Shown: piece after piece, positions 29,499-63,157 of the stretch
Position numbering within the stretch: position 1 is the stretch's first letter
Layout: each line of letters opens with the position of its first letter
The notes under the pieces: generated by a model
Databases searched by the model: none
Told to the model about the DNA's origin: nothing
The model's input: the letters and a program-made list of their open reading frames with translations, nothing else
Program-made: the position numbers and the translations under genes
Assembly (NCBI GenBank): GCA_015068245.1
Contig: SVKU01000005.1
Location: 14,847 to 78,846, forward strand
Reading direction: 5' to 3'
DNA length: 64,000 nucleotides
Source of the DNA: Oscillospiraceae bacterium
GTDB taxonomy: Bacteria > Bacillota > Clostridia > Oscillospirales > Oscillospiraceae

Positions 29499-29555
29499 AA
29501 ATAATTAGGCTCCTTTATATAGACATGGTTGTTTTAACAAAATGGTTGGGTATCT

Positions 29556-29642
29556 AATTAATAATTAATAGTTAATAATTAATATTGTAATGCGCAGCAT
29601 CCGAACATCCGAAACTATTAATTATTCATTATTAATTATTAA
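29556..29642. repeat. AT-rich inverted pair of heptamer arrays in the cysS leader
   Basis: The left arm is TAATTAA TAATTAA TAGTTAA TAATTAA (29556-29583). The right arm is its near-exact inverse (29615-29642). The central loop carries CATCCGAA x2 (29598-29613). A 20-mer, ctattaattattcattatta, is repeated exactly at 56895-56914. Confidence 0.85.
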
Positions 29643-33557: not shown

Positions 33558-33627
33558 TTATTACCGTTCCTTTCATTTGGGGTAATCGATGTCATCGCTT
33601 ACCCCGGAATAATTTACAGTTTTTGGC

Positions 33628-33652
33628 GGAACGGTCAAGACCGTTCCCTACA
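33628..33652 (-). repeat. GTAG-headed hairpin repeat (REP-like singlet, C-type)
   Basis: Minus strand reads tGTAG-GGAACGGTC-TT-GACCGTTCC. The same unit occurs at 42901-42924 and as a doublet at 62143-62207. Confidence 0.8.
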
Positions 33653-33679
33653 ATACTGTTTGAGTTAACAGTTAACTGC

Positions 33680-34543: not shown

Positions 34544-34555
34544 TTAATTCTCCTT

Positions 34556-34590
34556 TTAGGTTTCAGGGATCAGGGTTCAGAGGTCAGGGA
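34556..34590 (-). repeat. heptamer array, 5 units, each ending in a stop triplet
   Basis: Minus strand reads TCCCTGA CCTCTGA ACCCTGA TCCCTGA AACCTAA and abuts the prmC SD (AAGGAG). Confidence 0.85.
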
Positions 34591-37750: not shown

Positions 37751-37775
37751 TGGCTCAGTTTCCTTTCGTATATGT

Positions 37776-37803
37776 TTAGGTTTCAGGGTACAGGGATCAG
37801 GTT
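37776..37803 (-). repeat. heptamer array, 4 units, same family as 34556-34590
   Basis: Minus strand reads AACCTGA TCCCTGT ACCCTGA AACCTAA, about 25 nt upstream of the response-regulator ATG. It shares CCCTGAAACCTAAA with the prmC copy. Confidence 0.8.
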
Positions 37804-37874: not shown

Positions 37875-39302
37875 CTATACTTCACCGGTATTCCATTCTG
37901 TTCGAATGGGTTTGAATCCGGCAAGAATTTCTTCCATGGTAAGCATTTGCTCCCAGCTGTCGGCCCCGGGTGTGATCTCTGCACAGTAAATGACTTCTCC
38001 CTTGGTGTACAGCACAAAACGTCCGTCCTTTTCAGCCAGCTGCTGACGGTGGTCACCTGTCAGGGAATAAATGGTAAACAGCGGTTGTGGTTCGCCTTCA
38101 CCGTCGTATCGGTAAAAGGTCAATGCCTTACCTTCGGTACTGTCTGTTCGTGAAACAGAGATGTTTCCCTCCCACTGCTCGGGAATTATAAAATACCAGC
38201 TTTCGGAATAATTGTGGTATGTGGACAGTTTTTTCAGAAAATTTCCGTCGATATTCTGGCTATACCAGCTGATGGTGTAGTATGCCTCGGTGGAACCGTC
38301 CATTACGGGCATCTGTACAGGGCGAGCCAGTTCCACAACACCATCGCTGTCAACATCGGTGGGGTAAATTATATAGTTCCTTATAGCCTGCAGACTCACT
38401 TCCGCACCATCGGGCATGGCAACATTTACCAGTTGCCTGTCCCGCACAGCAAACACATCCGTAACCAACCCCGTGGACTGATATGTTCCTGACACGAATA
38501 CGGCATGAACTCCGTCTTCTATATAGCTGCTGCTTTTAATGCGTTTGATGGACTCCATTCCCAGCGACAACGGCACTGTGTTGACGAGCTTATACTCTCC
38601 GTCACAGTAATCGTAATAATCTGCGGTACCTGCAGTTTCGGGAGAATCCAGCTTAAACAGCAGCATTTCCACTGCACCATCGCGGTCGAGGTCGGCTGTT
38701 TTATACTCAGTGTAGCTGCCTGCAGTAATAAGTGTCAGTGAAAATCCGTCCGAAATGTCATAGACTCCCACATACTGCAGCACCTGGTCGCTCATCTGGA
38801 ATCCCAGTATTATCTCCAGAACACCATCGCCGTCCACATCTGAGTATTCCACACAGTCGAAAGCAGCACCGTCGCCGGATATCTCCGCAGCACGGGCATA
38901 CTCGCCCTCCATATTCTTGCTGAGCAGATATACCCTCATGGGTTTTTCACCGGTGACCGTCATAAAAGCCAGGGCTTCCTGAACTCCGTCACCGTTCAGA
39001 TCCACCAGCTGCACTGCCTGACGGTTGCTGCCCGAAACAGGGCCTGCATACCGGGCACCCTCTGCCAGCAGTACATCTATGCAGCTTTGCAGGTCGATAT
39101 AGTCGTCAGGTGCTTTTGGCAGGCTGTACAGCCCGTCTCCGCTTTCAGAAAAACAGCCGGAAAAGCACAGACACATCAAGGCGGCAAGTATGAAAATTTT
39201 AATAAATCGGCGTTTCAGACCGACCGCCCTCCTTTCGATTATTTCAACAATATATTGTAGCATATTCTTAGCCATTGCGCAACATGAAGTACGCGCTGTC
39301 AT
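37875..39302 (-). CDS. lipoprotein with FG-GAP/VCBS-like Ca-binding repeats (start uncertain)
   Basis: Repeated DxDGDGxxE motifs (DLNGDGVQE, DVDGDGVLE, DLDRDGAVE, DVDSDGVVE). Signal peptide KRRFIKIFILAALMCLCFSGC. The track ATG at 39302 lies inside repeat 39295-39384, so the real start is probably downstream (ATG at 39263, or CTG at 39218 after SD AAAGGAGGG). Confidence 0.7.
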   Translation of the reverse strand: MTARTSCCAMAKNMLQYIVEIIERRAVGLKRRFIKIFILAALMCLCFSGCFSESGDGLYSLPKAPDDYIDLQSCIDVLLAEGARYAGPVSGSNRQAVQLVDLNGDGVQEALAFMTVTGEKPMRVYLLSKNMEGEYARAAEISGDGAAFDCVEYSDVDGDGVLEIILGFQMSDQVLQYVGVYDISDGFSLTLITAGSYTEYKTADLDRDGAVEMLLFKLDSPETAGTADYYDYCDGEYKLVNTVPLSLGMESIKRIKSSSYIEDGVHAVFVSGTYQSTGLVTDVFAVRDRQLVNVAMPDGAEVSLQAIRNYIIYPTDVDSDGVVELARPVQMPVMDGSTEAYYTISWYSQNIDGNFLKKLSTYHNYSESWYFIIPEQWEGNISVSRTDSTEGKALTFYRYDGEGEPQPLFTIYSLTGDHRQQLAEKDGRFVLYTKGEVIYCAEITPGADSWEQMLTMEEILAGFKPIRTEWNTGEV

Positions 39303-39384
39303 ACTGAGCCTGCGAGGCAGGCGTGAGGATCCCCTGCAAAAGATGGGGATTTCTCCGTCAGCAAGCTGACGTTCGGAATGACAG
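39295..39384. repeat. cloverleaf-type intergenic element, copy A1
   Basis: Arms gctgtcatactgagc / gttcggaatgacag. Hairpins are cctgc-gag-gcagg, gaggatcccc-N9-ggggatttctcc and gtcagc-aa-gctgac. Confidence 0.8.
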
Positions 39385-39392
39385 TATGTCCG

Positions 39393-42890: not shown

Positions 42891-42900
42891 TATTCCACAA

Positions 42901-42924
42901 GGAACGGTCAAGACCGTTCCCTAC
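42901..42924 (-). repeat. GTAG-headed hairpin repeat (REP-like singlet, C-type)
   Basis: Minus strand reads GTAG-GGAACGGTC-TT-GACCGTTCC, identical to the copy at 33628-33651. Confidence 0.8.
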
Positions 42925-42990
42925 GTTACAATAGGACAGAAAAGTGCAAAATTGATAGCCAACTGTTCACTGTTCATTGTTAACTGTTAA

Positions 42991-48108: not shown

Positions 48109-48139
48109 CCGGTCTGCTGATGCAGACCGGTTTGTTTTT
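48109..48139 (+). terminator. intrinsic terminator after rpmB
   Basis: ccggtctgc-tgat-gcagaccgg followed by tttgttttt. Confidence 0.85.
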
Positions 48140-48200
48140 GCGGCAAACCATGACCCACAGCAAAAAACGCCAAAAGGCCAATATCATTAAGCAAAAGAAA

Positions 48201-48293
48201 GCTGTCATTCCGAACATTGCGCAAGCAATGGAGGAATCCCCATCATATGCAGGGGATCTCTCCGTCGGCTCCGCCGACGTTCGAGATGACAGC
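48201..48293. repeat. cloverleaf-type intergenic element, copy A2
   Basis: Arms gctgtcattccgaac / gttcgagatgacagc. Hairpins are cattgc-gcaa-gcaatg, gaggaatcccc-N9-ggggatctctcc and gtcgg-ctccg-ccgac. Confidence 0.85.
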
Positions 48294-48326
48294 TTATCTT
48301 AACGACCTTGCCTTTTGGCCTTCTTT

Positions 48327-49322: not shown

Positions 49323-49369
49323 TGTTAATCTCCTTTATGGGGCATATCATTTAAGTTAAACAGCACCTT

Positions 49370-49448
49370 GTCATTCTGAGGAGCGAAGCGACGTGAGAAT
49401 CCGTTATGAACAACACGGATTGCCACGTCGGTCAAAGATGACCTCCTC
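49370..49448. repeat. bulged long-hairpin element related to the cloverleaf family (variant A3)
   Basis: It starts with gtcattctgagg (compare gtcattccgaac). Nested stems are gaggag/ctcctc, cgacgtg/cacgtcg and aatccgt/acggatt. Confidence 0.65.
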
Positions 49449-49491
49449 GCAATAACGGGGAATTCCGGCTTAAGTACTTTATCTTTATGGA

Positions 49492-50118
49492 TCATTGTTT
49501 TCGGAACTGATCCATGGTAAGTCGGTTTTCTTCACCCTTAATTATCCTTGCGATGTTGCCACGGTGCATAAAAATGACCATAGATGCCATTATCGTGGTT
49601 ATGACCAGCACCGCTGTACCACCTATGTCAAACAGGACACACGACAGCGGAAACCCTGTAGCTGCCAGGACAGAACCGACGGAAACGATACGGCTAAATG
49701 CTGTTCCGAGAATGAAAATGATCAGAATAGTCACAAGAATACGCCAGTCTATCATCAGTCCCACGGCCGCACCTGTCATTATGCCTTTGCCGCCTTTGAA
49801 TCCGTAATACACCGGGAACATATGGCCAAGGATAACGAACAAGCCTCCAAGAGCACGACCCTCTATGCCGTAACCCAACTGCGACAGCAGCAACCCGCCT
49901 ATAACGCAGGCAGCAACACCTTTAAGAAAATCTATACCGATAACACCTGCTGCCCAGGCTCGTCCAAAGGCACGCATAAAGTTGGTAAGTCCGGCGTTGC
50001 CGCTGCCAAATGTGCGGACGTCCTTTTTGAATATGTGTTTTGAAATGATTATTGCGCCGTTGATGCCTCCCAGCAGATAGGCAGCCACTGCTGTAAGGAC
50101 AATGCTTATGATCAACAT
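49492..50118 (-). CDS. plsY: glycerol-3-phosphate acyltransferase PlsY
   Basis: MLIISIVLTAVAAYLLGGINGAIIISK...SGNAGLTN is a canonical PlsY. Start re-called to the ATG at 50118. The 62-codon track extension would overlap der. Confidence 0.92.
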   Translation of the reverse strand: MLIISIVLTAVAAYLLGGINGAIIISKHIFKKDVRTFGSGNAGLTNFMRAFGRAWAAGVIGIDFLKGVAACVIGGLLLSQLGYGIEGRALGGLFVILGHMFPVYYGFKGGKGIMTGAAVGLMIDWRILVTILIIFILGTAFSRIVSVGSVLAATGFPLSCVLFDIGGTAVLVITTIMASMVIFMHRGNIARIIKGEENRLTMDQFRKQ

Positions 50119-51533: not shown

Positions 51534-51590
51534 GCTGTCATTTCGAACCGGTGCTCACACCGGTGAGAAATCCCCATCTTACGAAAGGTT
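51534..51590. repeat. decayed or truncated cloverleaf-type element, copy A4
   Basis: It keeps the left arm gctgtcatttcgaac, the first hairpin ccggtg-ctca-caccgg, and the 5' half of the central hairpin gagaaatccccatctt. The 3' half is degenerate. Confidence 0.6.
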
Positions 51591-51606: not shown

Positions 51607-51678
51607 GTAGGGGGCGGCGACCACGACGCCCCGCAACAGCCGAAACAAAAACGGGCTGTCGAGGACGCCAGCCCCTAC
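51607..51678. repeat. inverted doublet of GTAG-headed GC hairpins (REPIN-like, G-type)
   Basis: GTAGGGGGCGGCGACCACGACGCCCCGC, an 18-nt spacer, then GGGCTGTCGAGGACGCCAGCCCCTAC. The two halves differ, but each keeps its own stem (ggggcg/cgcccc versus gggctg/cagccc). Confidence 0.7.
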
Positions 51679-51718
51679 AATTATCCCTGTTTCGGTTTCG
51701 GCAAATATTAATTCTTAA

Positions 51719-54312: not shown

Positions 54313-54393
54313 GGTTTTATATTTCCTTTACTTGTGTCGTTCTGATATGATATCATATTATTGTTTAATTAACAATCTTTGTTTTATCCCAAT

Positions 54394-54464
54394 GTAGGGC
54401 GGGGGCTTGCTCCCGCCGAGAAAACCCAATTGTCGAACACGGCGGGAGCAAGCCCCCGCCCTAC
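54394..54464. repeat. perfect inverted doublet of GTAG-headed hairpins (REPIN-like, B-type)
   Basis: GTAGGGCGGGGGCTTGCTCCCGCC (54394-54417), a 23-nt spacer, then the exact reverse complement (54441-54464). Confidence 0.85.
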
Positions 54465-54500
54465 ACCATGCAACACAATAAACAACAGGAGCAATCGCCA

Positions 54501-55454: not shown

Positions 55455-55561
55455 TGGAATGCTGTCAAAACCGACGCTGAAAACGACAGTTGAGACGCTG
55501 ATATGTATAATTCAGCCGTTTGGTATTGCGGATTTGGAAATGTGAGGTATGATTGCAATAG

Positions 55562-55647
55562 GCTCTCCCTTTGGGAGAGCTGTTATCGAAGATGACTGAG
55601 AGGGCCCTCTCCGGCGACTTTGTCGCCACCTCTCCCAGAGGGAGAGG
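55562..55647. repeat. four consecutive hairpins built from the word CTCTCCC/GGGAGAG
   Basis: gctctccc-ttt-gggagagc (55562-55580), gagaggg-ccctctc (55598-55611), ggcgac-ttt-gtcgcc (55613-55627), and cctctccc-aga-gggagagg (55629-55647) followed by cttttcg. Confidence 0.75.
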
Positions 55648-55678
55648 CTTTTCGAAAATCTTACAAGGAGGTATCACC

Positions 55679-56683: not shown

Positions 56684-56720
56684 AATAAGACTCCCTCTGA
56701 TGAGCAATATCATTAAGTTA

Positions 56721-56832
56721 AGCTGTCATCTCGAACGCCGACCTTGTCGGCGGAGAGATCCCCATCTTAAGAAGGGGATTTCTCCCTCGCTCCGGTCAGC
56801 AAGCTGACCGACCTCGGTTCGAAATGGCAGCT
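56721..56832. repeat. cloverleaf-type intergenic element, copy A5 (best preserved)
   Basis: Arms agctgtcatctcgaac / gttcgaaatggcagct. Hairpins are gccgac-cttg-tcggc, ggagagatcccc-N9-aggggatttctcc and ggtcagc-aa-gctgacc. Confidence 0.85.
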
Positions 56833-56890
56833 TCTTCTTATCTTAATATCATTGCTCTGATGATGGGGCTTTTCGCTTTCTCCCTTGGCT

Positions 56891-56925
56891 TTATCTATTA
56901 ATTATTCATTATTATCTATTAATTA
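56891..56925. repeat. AT-rich heptamer array (21-nt super-period)
   Basis: TTATCTA TTAATTA TTCATTA TTATCTA TTAATTA. It shares an exact 20-mer with 29615-29634. Confidence 0.8.
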
Positions 56926-60891: not shown

Positions 60892-60919
60892 GGGTTAGGA
60901 TTTAGGGATGAGGGGTTAG
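60892..60919 (+). repeat. heptamer array, 4 units, each ending in a stop triplet
   Basis: GGGTTAG GATTTAG GGATGAG GGGTTAG. Confidence 0.75.
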
Positions 60920-62142: not shown

Positions 62143-62207
62143 GTAGGGAACGGCCTTGACCGTTCCTCCTGCTGACAAAAATCGGAACGGTCAAGGCCGT
62201 TCCCTAC
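62143..62207. repeat. perfect inverted doublet of GTAG-headed hairpins (REPIN-like, C-type)
   Basis: GTAGGGAACGGCCTTGACCGTTCC (62143-62166), a 17-nt spacer, then the exact reverse complement (62184-62207). Confidence 0.85.
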
Positions 62208-63122: not shown

Positions 63123-63157
63123 CCCTGATCCCTGATCCCTGATCCCTGATCCCCTAT
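63123..63157 (+). repeat. perfect heptamer microsatellite CCCTGAT x4 plus one degenerate unit
   Basis: ccctgat x4 (63123-63150), then cccctat. It is the reverse-complement family of 34556-34590 and 37776-37803. Confidence 0.9.

Follow-up and report, generated by a model that had tools for sequence, protein, structure and literature searches.

The CGTC-tagged REPs are extragenic palindromes that carry a CGTC, TGTC or CCTC tag, a stem of 8–9 bp starting with A-T, a loop of 4–5 nt and a short unpaired tail, and that frequently occur as inverted dimers including heterodimers (Di Nocera 2013, PMC3733652). They were described in five phyla, to which Bacillota, Chloroflexota and Acidobacteriota do not belong, include dRS3 of Neisseria and RPE-4 and RPE-6 of Rickettsia, and a dedicated transposase or other enzyme was not found for them (PMC3733652). 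Such a partner was later identified in the Ssn family of single-domain GIY-YIG proteins (cd10448), the genes of which are flanked by hairpin repeats, the Ssn-related motifs (SRM), in 71% of the cases and on both sides in 42% (Chenal 2025, PMC11893778). Ssn of N. meningitidis binds the SRM hairpin as single-stranded DNA (ssDNA) only, not as double-stranded DNA or RNA, cuts at a site a few nucleotides upstream and restricts transforming ssDNA; binding critically requires the C right after the palindrome, cutting the 3 nt in front of it, and the enzyme does without the loop and tolerates arbitrary or complementary extensions in its place (PMC11893778). Biochemical characterisation of the Ssn/SRM system covers four proteobacterial enzymes (PMC11893778). 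The present analysis concerns an element of 90–112 nt dispersed over a 64,000-nt stretch of DNA (the window) from an Oscillospiraceae bacterium (assembly GCA_015068245.1, contig SVKU01000005.1, positions 14,847 to 78,846 of the forward strand), with one copy at 56721–56832. A first reading of the sequence alone (the sequence-only reading) had described it as a conserved cloverleaf of four stems that could not be assigned to any family. The element probably consists of two inverted copies of a variant Ssn-type (CGTC/TGTC-tagged) hairpin repeat and acts at the DNA level; the data do not support a novel cloverleaf RNA or an element that defies classification.

A bipartite hairpin unit

The building block of the element is a unit of about 38 nt, (C)TGTC-ATYYC-GAAC-(variable hairpin)-GGAG-RRAT-CCCC, which is found alone, as at 51534, or as an inverted pair in which the tags point outward and the CCCC tails face each other. 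Five parts can be distinguished: an unpaired 5′ tag (C)TGTC, a basal stem of 5 bp (ATYYC/GRRAT), a conserved purine internal loop with GAA opposite GGA, an apical hairpin and a 3′ C. A scan of one genome per species with the pattern GTCATYYCGAAC-N(8-38)-GAGRRATCCCC, in which YY and RR were left independent of each other, yielded at least 112 loci in Bacteroidota, Chloroflexota, Bacillota, Acidobacteriota, Hydrogenedentota, Kapaibacteria, Verrucomicrobiota and Alphaproteobacteria, with 237 units among the matches listed. Complementary YY/RR pairs dominate among these 237 units (TC/GA 85, TT/AA 74, CC/GG 20, CT/AG 17, GT/AC 3), and the base at −1 is T in 73% of them. Alignment of the conserved segments of 39 listed dimers revealed that C6, A7, T8, A22, T23 and C24 are invariant, C6 being part of the tag and C24 following the stem, and that the tag positions G4 and T5 are conserved to at least 90% (tag TGTC or CGTC). 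ORFs (open reading frames) contain 26% of the units as compared to an ORF coverage of 82%, indicating depletion, and the orientation of the units relative to the flanking genes is without bias (13:11 and 6:6). The repeats are not phage-borne, as only 2 unit matches were found in 2.9 million viral contigs.

The apical inserts are 6–44 nt long, and 156 distinct ones were counted among the 186 listed units with perfect basal stems. Hairpins with 3 bp or more are formed by 74% of the inserts, with a mean minimum free energy (MFE) of −6.0 kcal/mol as compared to −3.5 kcal/mol for shuffles, and some inserts of the window are linked by compensatory changes (GCCGAC/GTCGGC versus GTCGGC/GCCGAC). Since the inserts vary while tag, basal stem, GAA/GGA loop and 3′ C stay constant, the apical arm is tolerated in any sequence. 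These data bear out the earlier proposal that side hairpins are replaced as a whole with retention of pairing, the list of which was correct, and likewise the description of a dispersed, non-coding, structure-forming repeat.

Which fold is conserved?

For the three full copies (56721–56832, 48201–48293 and 39295–39385) the MFE fold is a four-way junction on either strand, as the sequence-only reading had predicted. Folded as RNA the copies reach z scores of −4.7 to −7.9 and none of 200 shuffles is as stable; folded as DNA they reach −32.1, −27.6 and −22.3 kcal/mol (z −6.0, −6.5 and −4.4). The palindromic nature of the element is the reason why the two strands adopt the same fold. Is it this junction or the hairpin of the single unit that is conserved? 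When local stems and junction stems were compared in the 39 aligned dimers, the within-unit stems were found paired to 97.9%, with 47 double-change cells versus 15.2 in shuffles, a number not reached by any of 500 shuffles. At these variable columns, the outer and central stems of the junction fail to pair in 26 of 156 cells (8, 7, 2 and 9 sequences) and form wobbles in many more; the outermost 3 nt of the dimer halves are complementary in 23–37 of the 39 dimers. Moreover, 12 of 40 listed dimers join two different, internally perfect units, the mismatch between which breaks the "outer" and the "central" stem, and most units must stand alone or beside a diverged partner, as the listed loci contain only 40 strict dimers. 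In addition, the orthologue of the 39295 dimer downstream of dnaE in a relative of about 85% identity (L089) differs by 7 substitutions, all located in loops or at YY/RR, and has two perfect local stems, while the 39295 stems in the window are slightly decayed. Within-unit covariation, mixed dimers and the substitutions in L089 together argue for the unit hairpin as the selected structure. The four-stem cloverleaf as a conserved feature is thus not upheld. The junction is a consequence of the dimer arrangement, an alternative and thermodynamically favoured fold, which in a fully single-stranded dimer is about 9–13 kcal/mol more favourable than two separate hairpins.

Units bracket genes for small GIY-YIG proteins

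An all-versus-all clustering of ORFs over the 112 listed loci was aimed at an associated transposase. No transposase family was present among the clusters, and the sole recurrent family of small ORFs encodes a single-domain GIY-YIG protein of about 96–100 aa (PF01541). In 6 of these 112 pattern-selected loci, from Bacteroidota and Acidobacteriota, the PF01541 gene is tightly flanked by units of the subfamily found in the window. As an unbiased test served 80 metagenome loci that were picked by homology to the GIY-YIG protein alone. A unit is located at most 300 nt from the gene in 50 of these 80 loci, and a strict generic detector (GTC-X5-GA...rc(X5)-CYY) found 163 units versus 3 in shuffles, piled up within ±250 nt of the gene. 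Units upstream are mainly oriented like the gene (47:16) and units downstream are mainly inverted (41:19), with units on both sides in 24 of the 80 loci. Compact unit-gene-unit cassettes measure 363–457 nt, the downstream unit starting at a median of 6 nt past the stop codon, and in cassettes of about 80% identity the common part consists of unit, gene and unit only, without synteny of the flanks. A link to the published system is provided by A. lipoferum, where a 97-aa GIY-YIG gene between sufB and sufC has canonical SRM dimers (CGTCATCCCCGCGAAGGCGGGGATCCAG) on both sides; its product and the Bacteroidales GIY-YIG protein are 40% identical (pairwise E 1.5e-26). The nearest solved structures to the flanked proteins are UPF0213 proteins, and NCBIfam holds no model for them.

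Three further arrangements of these genes were seen. On plasmid AZO_p3 of Azospirillum lipoferum 4B (L213 897–1405) the GIY-YIG gene with its SRM dimers looks like a cassette inserted into an operon. In the Bacteroidales metagenome-assembled genome OY781105.1 (L082 3745–5170) a segment made up of one unit, the GIY-YIG gene and three inverted units is duplicated in tandem, with 96% identity over 675 nt. At several metagenome loci (L146, L155 and L185) the nuclease gene resides inside long arrays of repeats of about 150 nt.

A probable variant of the Ssn-type repeat

How do the units compare with the described repeats? With the SRM (NTS/dRS3 in Neisseria) they share the unpaired 5′ (C/T)GTC tag, the A-T stem start (ATTCC.../...GGAAT), the C after the stem, a free apical part, the occurrence as intergenic multi-copy repeats with frequent inverted pairs and, for the subfamily of the window in other genomes, the unit-gene-unit, insertion sequence (IS)-like bracketing of GIY-YIG genes of about 96 aa. 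HGTC tag, W-Y (A-T) stem start and 3′ C, by which SRM are defined, are all present in the units. With the CGTC-tagged REPs they share the CGTC/TGTC tag, the A-T stem start, a C-rich short tail, the extragenic location and the inverted dimers and heterodimers, whereas the tail reads CCC(C) instead of the published consensus CCA. The published properties of Ssn map one-to-one onto the anatomy of the unit, and its tolerance towards the loop would explain why the side hairpins can be swapped. The element therefore does fit a family, namely the CGTC/TGTC-tagged REPs (PMC3733652) and the Ssn-related hairpin repeats (PMC11893778), contrary to the initial statement that it is unassignable. What is new is a variant of this already described repeat family with short basal stem, purine internal loop and apical hairpin.

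Several observations weigh against this assignment. 1) The published SRM pattern HGTCWYN(0-2)YYVSBRHN(0-5)WNVSBRGN(0-2)RNCYNB, which does match the control repeats of A. lipoferum, has no match in the window, none among the 237 listed units and matches at only 4 of the 80 GIY-YIG loci, so that the units of the window have to be regarded as a variant. 2) The units consist of a 5-bp stem, a GAA/GGA loop and an apical insert of 6–44 nt, whereas the SRM have a stem of 8–9 bp and a loop of 0–5 nt; nor do the units have the 8–9-bp stem and 4–5-nt loop of the CGTC-tagged REPs. 3) No GIY-YIG, RAYT or transposase gene is found in the 64-kb window or in the compared Oscillospiraceae loci, and the placement of the flanked proteins in CDD cd10448 was not confirmed. 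4) Two copies are surrounded by target-site duplications of 8–9 bp, unlike the product expected of a single-strand nickase, which points to another mobilising activity for those two copies. 5) Given the preference of 9–13 kcal/mol, the junction fold of a single-stranded dimer may have consequences of its own. Further differences to the SRM are the host, which is an Oscillospiraceae-like member of the Clostridia, and the location of three copies inside a larger composite.

For a variant Ssn-type repeat the following mode of action is proposed. Wherever the DNA becomes single-stranded, as in the lagging-strand template or in incoming transforming or conjugative DNA, each unit would fold separately. 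A small single-domain GIY-YIG nuclease of the Ssn type, encoded elsewhere in the genome, would bind the basal stem and the 3′ C and nick the strand on the 5′ side of the tag, at a distance of a few nucleotides. Since the protein would not read the apical part, whole side hairpins could be swapped. In this way the repeats might modulate the fate of ssDNA and spread within genomes. The ssDNA-only, tag- and C-dependent and loop-independent cleavage is taken from the literature (PMC11893778), while unit anatomy, covariation, GIY-YIG bracketing in other phyla and the gained and lost copies, with one insertion proven, come from the present data. It is inferred that a cognate Ssn is encoded in this genome and acts on these copies. 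It is also conceivable, though unlikely, that the four-way-junction fold of the dimer, in which the tag is hidden within the outer stem, turns off cleavage by Ssn; the dimer would then be a regulated or protected form.

Copies in the window and their surroundings

All five copies are present at the positions given by the sequence-only reading (Table 1), although some details have to be corrected. The central loop of the full copies, stated as 9 nt, has 10 nt. The copy at 51534, called decayed, comprises one entire unit, the hairpin of which is perfect (ATTTC/GAAAT plus CCGGTG/CACCGG; DNA MFE −10.5, z −3.75), and the bases behind it up to about 51600 may at most be a degenerate second half. The variant at 49370 exists as well, but extends to 49456 rather than 49448 and represents an inverted dimer from a sister subfamily. 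The 15-nt arm GCTGTCATYYCGAAC occurs in the window with 0–1 mismatch only at 48201(+), 48279(−), 51534(+), 56722(+), 56817(−) and 39371(−), and a relaxed unit scan of the window matched at the five sites only (7 units versus 1.1 in shuffles).

Table 1. Units, dimers and inserted segments in the window (positions count from the first letter of the 64,000-nt stretch)
Feature	Position	Strand	Sequence or remark
Inverted dimer	56721..56832	.	The two units differ in their stems, each complementary within itself (ATCTC/GAGAT and ATTTC/GAAAT)
Left unit of 56721 dimer	56725–56763	+	GTCATCTCGAAC-(GCCGAC/GTCGGC hairpin)-GAGAGATCCCC
Spacer of 56721 dimer	between left and right unit		10 nt
Right unit of 56721 dimer	56774–56828	−	GCCATTTCGAAC-(GGTCAGC/GCTGACC hairpin)-GAGAAATCCCC
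Composite segment around 56721 dimer	56704..56854	+	Ends GCAATATCATTAAG ... CTTAATATCATTG; boundaries within 1 nt of the equivalents of 49341–49482
Candidate 9-bp target-site duplication	left 56695..56703; right 56855..56863	+	CTCTGATGA
Inverted dimer	48201..48293	.	Two units; convergent genes gpsA and rpmB on either side
First unit of 48201 dimer	48204–48241	+	Stem ATTCC/GGAAT, apical ATTGC/GCAAT
Second unit of 48201 dimer	48252–48290	−	Stem ATCTC/GAGAT, apical GTCGGC/GCCGAC
Approximate composite around 48201 dimer	48178..48310	+	CCAATATCATTAAG ... CTTAACGACCTTG; without target duplication
"Bare" inverted dimer	39295..39385	.	Without ATATCATTAAG/CTTAA ends
First unit of 39295 dimer	39298–39334	+	Stem ATACT/AGGAT with one mismatch
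Second unit of 39295 dimer	39345–39382	−	
Inverted dimer, sister subfamily	49370..49456	.	ATTCT and ATTGC stems
First unit of 49370 dimer	49370–49403	+	GTCATTCTGAGGAGCGAAGCGACGTGAGAATCCG
Second unit of 49370 dimer	49416–49456	−	GTTATTGCGAGGAGGTCATCTTTGACCGACGTGGCAATCCG
Inserted segment, 142 nt	49341..49482	+	GGCATATCATTTAAG ... dimer ... CTTAAGTACTTTAT; from filled-versus-empty alignment
8-bp target-site duplication	left 49333..49340; right 49483..49490	+	CTTTATGG; single copy in empty sites
Single unit	51534..51575	+	GCTGTCATTTCGAAC-(CCGGTG/CACCGG)-GAGAAATCCCC

The neighbouring genes are housekeeping genes (dnaE, gpsA, plsY, der, potA), the window being a housekeeping cluster from dnaE to potABCD, and the best named relatives of its GpsA are from Flavonifractor (61%). 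That all copies are intergenic holds for the public gene calls apart from ORFs of 60 aa and 56 aa that are called across two copies (window 48120–48302 and about 49330–49500; L193 13192–13374 and 11999–12169). These ORFs, over the 48201 and the 49370 element, have no Pfam match, in agreement with the earlier suspicion that such repeats are mis-annotated as small hypothetical proteins.

The window contains other repeats. A second, unrelated family comprises GTAG-tagged REP-like palindromes (62143–62207, 54393–54465, about 51607–51680, 33625–33661 and 42896–42941; for example GTAGGGAACGGCCTTGACCGTTCC and TGTAGGGCGGGGGCTTGCTCCCGCCG), which form perfect inverted pairs and singles as is typical of RAYT-type REPINs; no RAYT gene is found in the window. 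Between an rluD-like gene and the next ORF (55557–55652) lies an overlapping palindrome rich in GGGAGAG/CTCTCCC with arms of 51 nt that are complementary to 75%. Short intergenic repeats of the CAGGGAT/TCAGGG type are located in both orientations at 34555–34590, 37775–37800, 60894–60919 and 63123–63149, and AT-rich repeats of the TAATTAATAATT type are common to the intergenic regions 29555–29642 and 56895–56925, the latter just downstream of the 56721 element.

Gain and loss of copies, and the vehicle

Relatives of the window were reached via homologues of GpsA and the orthologous sites were compared. The 49341–49482 insert is present in the window, in L202 (95%) and in L203 (92%) and is absent from L204, L205, L206 and L207; L204 and L203 encode an identical GpsA protein, yet the site is empty in L204. 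With the 49370 element the plsY-gpsA spacer measures 169–172 nt, without it 13–22 nt (L204–L207). The search for empty sites that the sequence-only reading had recommended was thus successful for 49341–49482, where the filled site has the 8-bp duplication. The 56704–56854 composite is absent from L205, a relative of 85% identity. L202 (95% GpsA) has the copy at 48201, L205 lacks it, and the singlet at 51534, together with an adjacent pair of GTAG-type palindromes, is absent from L205 and L206. An exact look-up of the Der protein retrieved identical strains only, without polymorphism. Three copies have additional conserved flanks, ATATCATT(T)AAG ... CTTAA, which are part of the inserted DNA; a MITE-like composite (MITE, miniature inverted-repeat transposable element) thus carries the dimers in this lineage. 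Such ends were found only in this species and its closest relatives in all sequence compared.

Two side observations concern the same sites. In L089 (2953–3080) a single unit (GTCACTTCAAGC...GGAGAAATCCCC) is located where the window (37753–37790) has unrelated CAGGGAT-type repeats, a further presence/absence difference, the boundaries of which cannot be aligned. Furthermore, in the three composites the unit end ATGACA (ATGGCA at 56824) and the ATATCATT terminus make up an outward pair resembling a −35 and a −10 box at a distance of 17 nt (48208–48180(−), 49374–49346(−) and 56824–56852(+)); the pair at 49.3 kb points into gpsA, which in the relatives with empty site lies only 13–22 nt from plsY.

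What moved these segments? The three copies with ATATCATT(T)AAG ... CTTAA ends could be MITEs that are moved in trans by a DDE-type transposase making staggered cuts of 8–9 bp, the dimer being cargo or a nested insertion. With bacterial MITEs (Correia/NEMIS, RUP, Nezha) the element shares the short, non-coding, intergenic long palindrome, the insertion polymorphism and the target-site duplication. The 8-bp duplication is proven by the empty site, a 9-bp direct repeat is found at the equivalent boundaries of the 56721 composite, and the same ends enclose dimers of two subfamilies and are limited to this species and its closest relatives. However, the terminal inverted repeats are weak (TTAAG and partial matches), and neither a parent IS nor a transposase was found in the sequence compared, no IS with ATATCATTAAG ends being present in it. 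The 48201 copy lacks a duplication, the 39295 dimer lacks such ends, and dimers of other phyla are without enrichment of flanking direct repeats over mismatched flanks (13 observed versus 10.2 expected for 7-mers), indicating that target-site duplication is not general to the family. The sequence-only reading had named a MITE with defined termini and target-site duplications as the outcome that would speak against it; such a structure is seen for two copies (8 bp with an empty site at 49341–49482 and likely 9 bp at 56704–56854), but not for 48201, for 39295 or across the family. A MITE would in any case account for the vehicle only, not for the core, a nuclease-recognition hairpin found across phyla, or its association with the nuclease. 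For the three composites this explanation is tentative at present, with rather more doubt than confidence. Alternatively, the dimers could be actively transposing in this lineage and insert with 8–9-bp duplications, driven by a GIY-YIG Ssn and host repair rather than by a borrowed DDE transposase. This is an unlikely scenario. If true, it would constitute a previously undescribed GIY-YIG-based pathway of DNA transposition and the first direct evidence for mobility of SRM/CGTC repeats.

Other explanations

Could the elements be exapted terminator or mRNA-stabiliser hairpins, that is, stems downstream of genes that stabilise transcripts or prevent read-through? All copies are located between genes, REPs are mainly found downstream of ORFs (PMC3733652), and the 48201 copy is situated between the convergent genes gpsA and rpmB with flanks (GCCAAAAGGC/GCCTTTTGGC and a T-run) that resemble a split terminator stem; in addition, the 39295 copy is kept at the same site across genomes of about 85% identity with its stems untouched. 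On the other hand, no T-run follows the elements, a terminator scan does not call them, and sites are empty in close relatives without replacement. Such a function would be a secondary consequence at best and leaves the origin and the conserved tag unexplained, which makes it improbable as an account of the element. Secondarily, the elements may act as terminator, stabiliser or outward promoter.

A structured non-coding RNA or RNA motif working as four-way junction would agree with the stable MFE junction on both strands, with the exchange of side hairpins under retention of pairing and with the complementarity of the outermost 3 nt of the halves in many dimers. Yet the folding of both strands is what any palindrome does, the discriminating positions favour pairing within the unit, and most units are singlets. 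Neither an orientation bias nor a match in Rfam, searched at gathering threshold and at E≤1, was found, the only weak matches being on the unrelated GTAG palindrome; the Rfam search proposed earlier thus came out negative, and raw element sequences searched in the literature matched only primers. Copies are gained and lost among close relatives, units serve as inverted flanks of a nuclease gene, and the characterised Ssn does not bind RNA (PMC11893778). Of the earlier suggestion of a folded RNA or ssDNA, the folded ssDNA form is relevant, while the RNA role finds no backing in these data. An RNA element is very improbable and largely refuted already.

A classical REPIN mobilised by a RAYT, an HUH tyrosine transposase (Bertels & Rainey 2011, PMC3116915; Nunvar 2010; Ton-Hoang 2012), follows the same logic of palindromic units, inverted dimers, intergenic location and long persistence, and palindrome pairs with a GTAG tag, from another family, are also present in the window. 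Shared with the REPIN-RAYT system are also the doublet as the replicating entity, the nuclease gene flanked by units and the mostly vertical persistence, the 39295 copy being common to genomes of about 85% identity. However, REPINs have a GTAG tag, an HUH Y1 transposase and no expected target duplication, whereas here the tag is TGTC, the gene bracketed elsewhere encodes a GIY-YIG protein and not Y1_Tnp, and two copies have 8–9-bp duplications; no RAYT was found flanked by CGTC-type repeats (PMC3733652) and none is encoded in the window. Mobilisation by a RAYT is accordingly hardly to be expected.

Integron attC sites, which likewise function as folded ssDNA and are imperfect palindromes with conserved ends and variable centre or terminal structure, and to whose R′/R″ cores GTTCG/CGAAC bears a vague likeness, can practically be dismissed, as CGAAC/GTTCG is at the inner and not the outer end of the outer stem, most units are singlets without a partner core, R/L boxes, extrahelical bases and cassette arrays are missing, the neighbours are housekeeping genes rather than cassettes and no integrase is encoded in the window. 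The attC, RAYT/REPIN and k-turn-like readings were all ruled out on anatomy.

Implications

For genome annotation it follows that the elements should be masked, as public gene calls set "hypothetical proteins" of 56–60 aa on them. For the family, the logic of tag, stem and C also holds for a two-part hairpin whose apical arm is free to vary and which occurs in at least eight phyla. This form brackets GIY-YIG genes as tightly as the published form and is missed by the published search pattern, suggesting that the family, and with it the catalogue of enzyme/site pairs that could serve as ssDNA tools, is probably much larger than the published motif suggests. Finally, the strain-level empty site with its target duplication is concrete evidence that repeat dimers still move, and the spread of CGTC-type repeats, a question open since 2013, has become testable.

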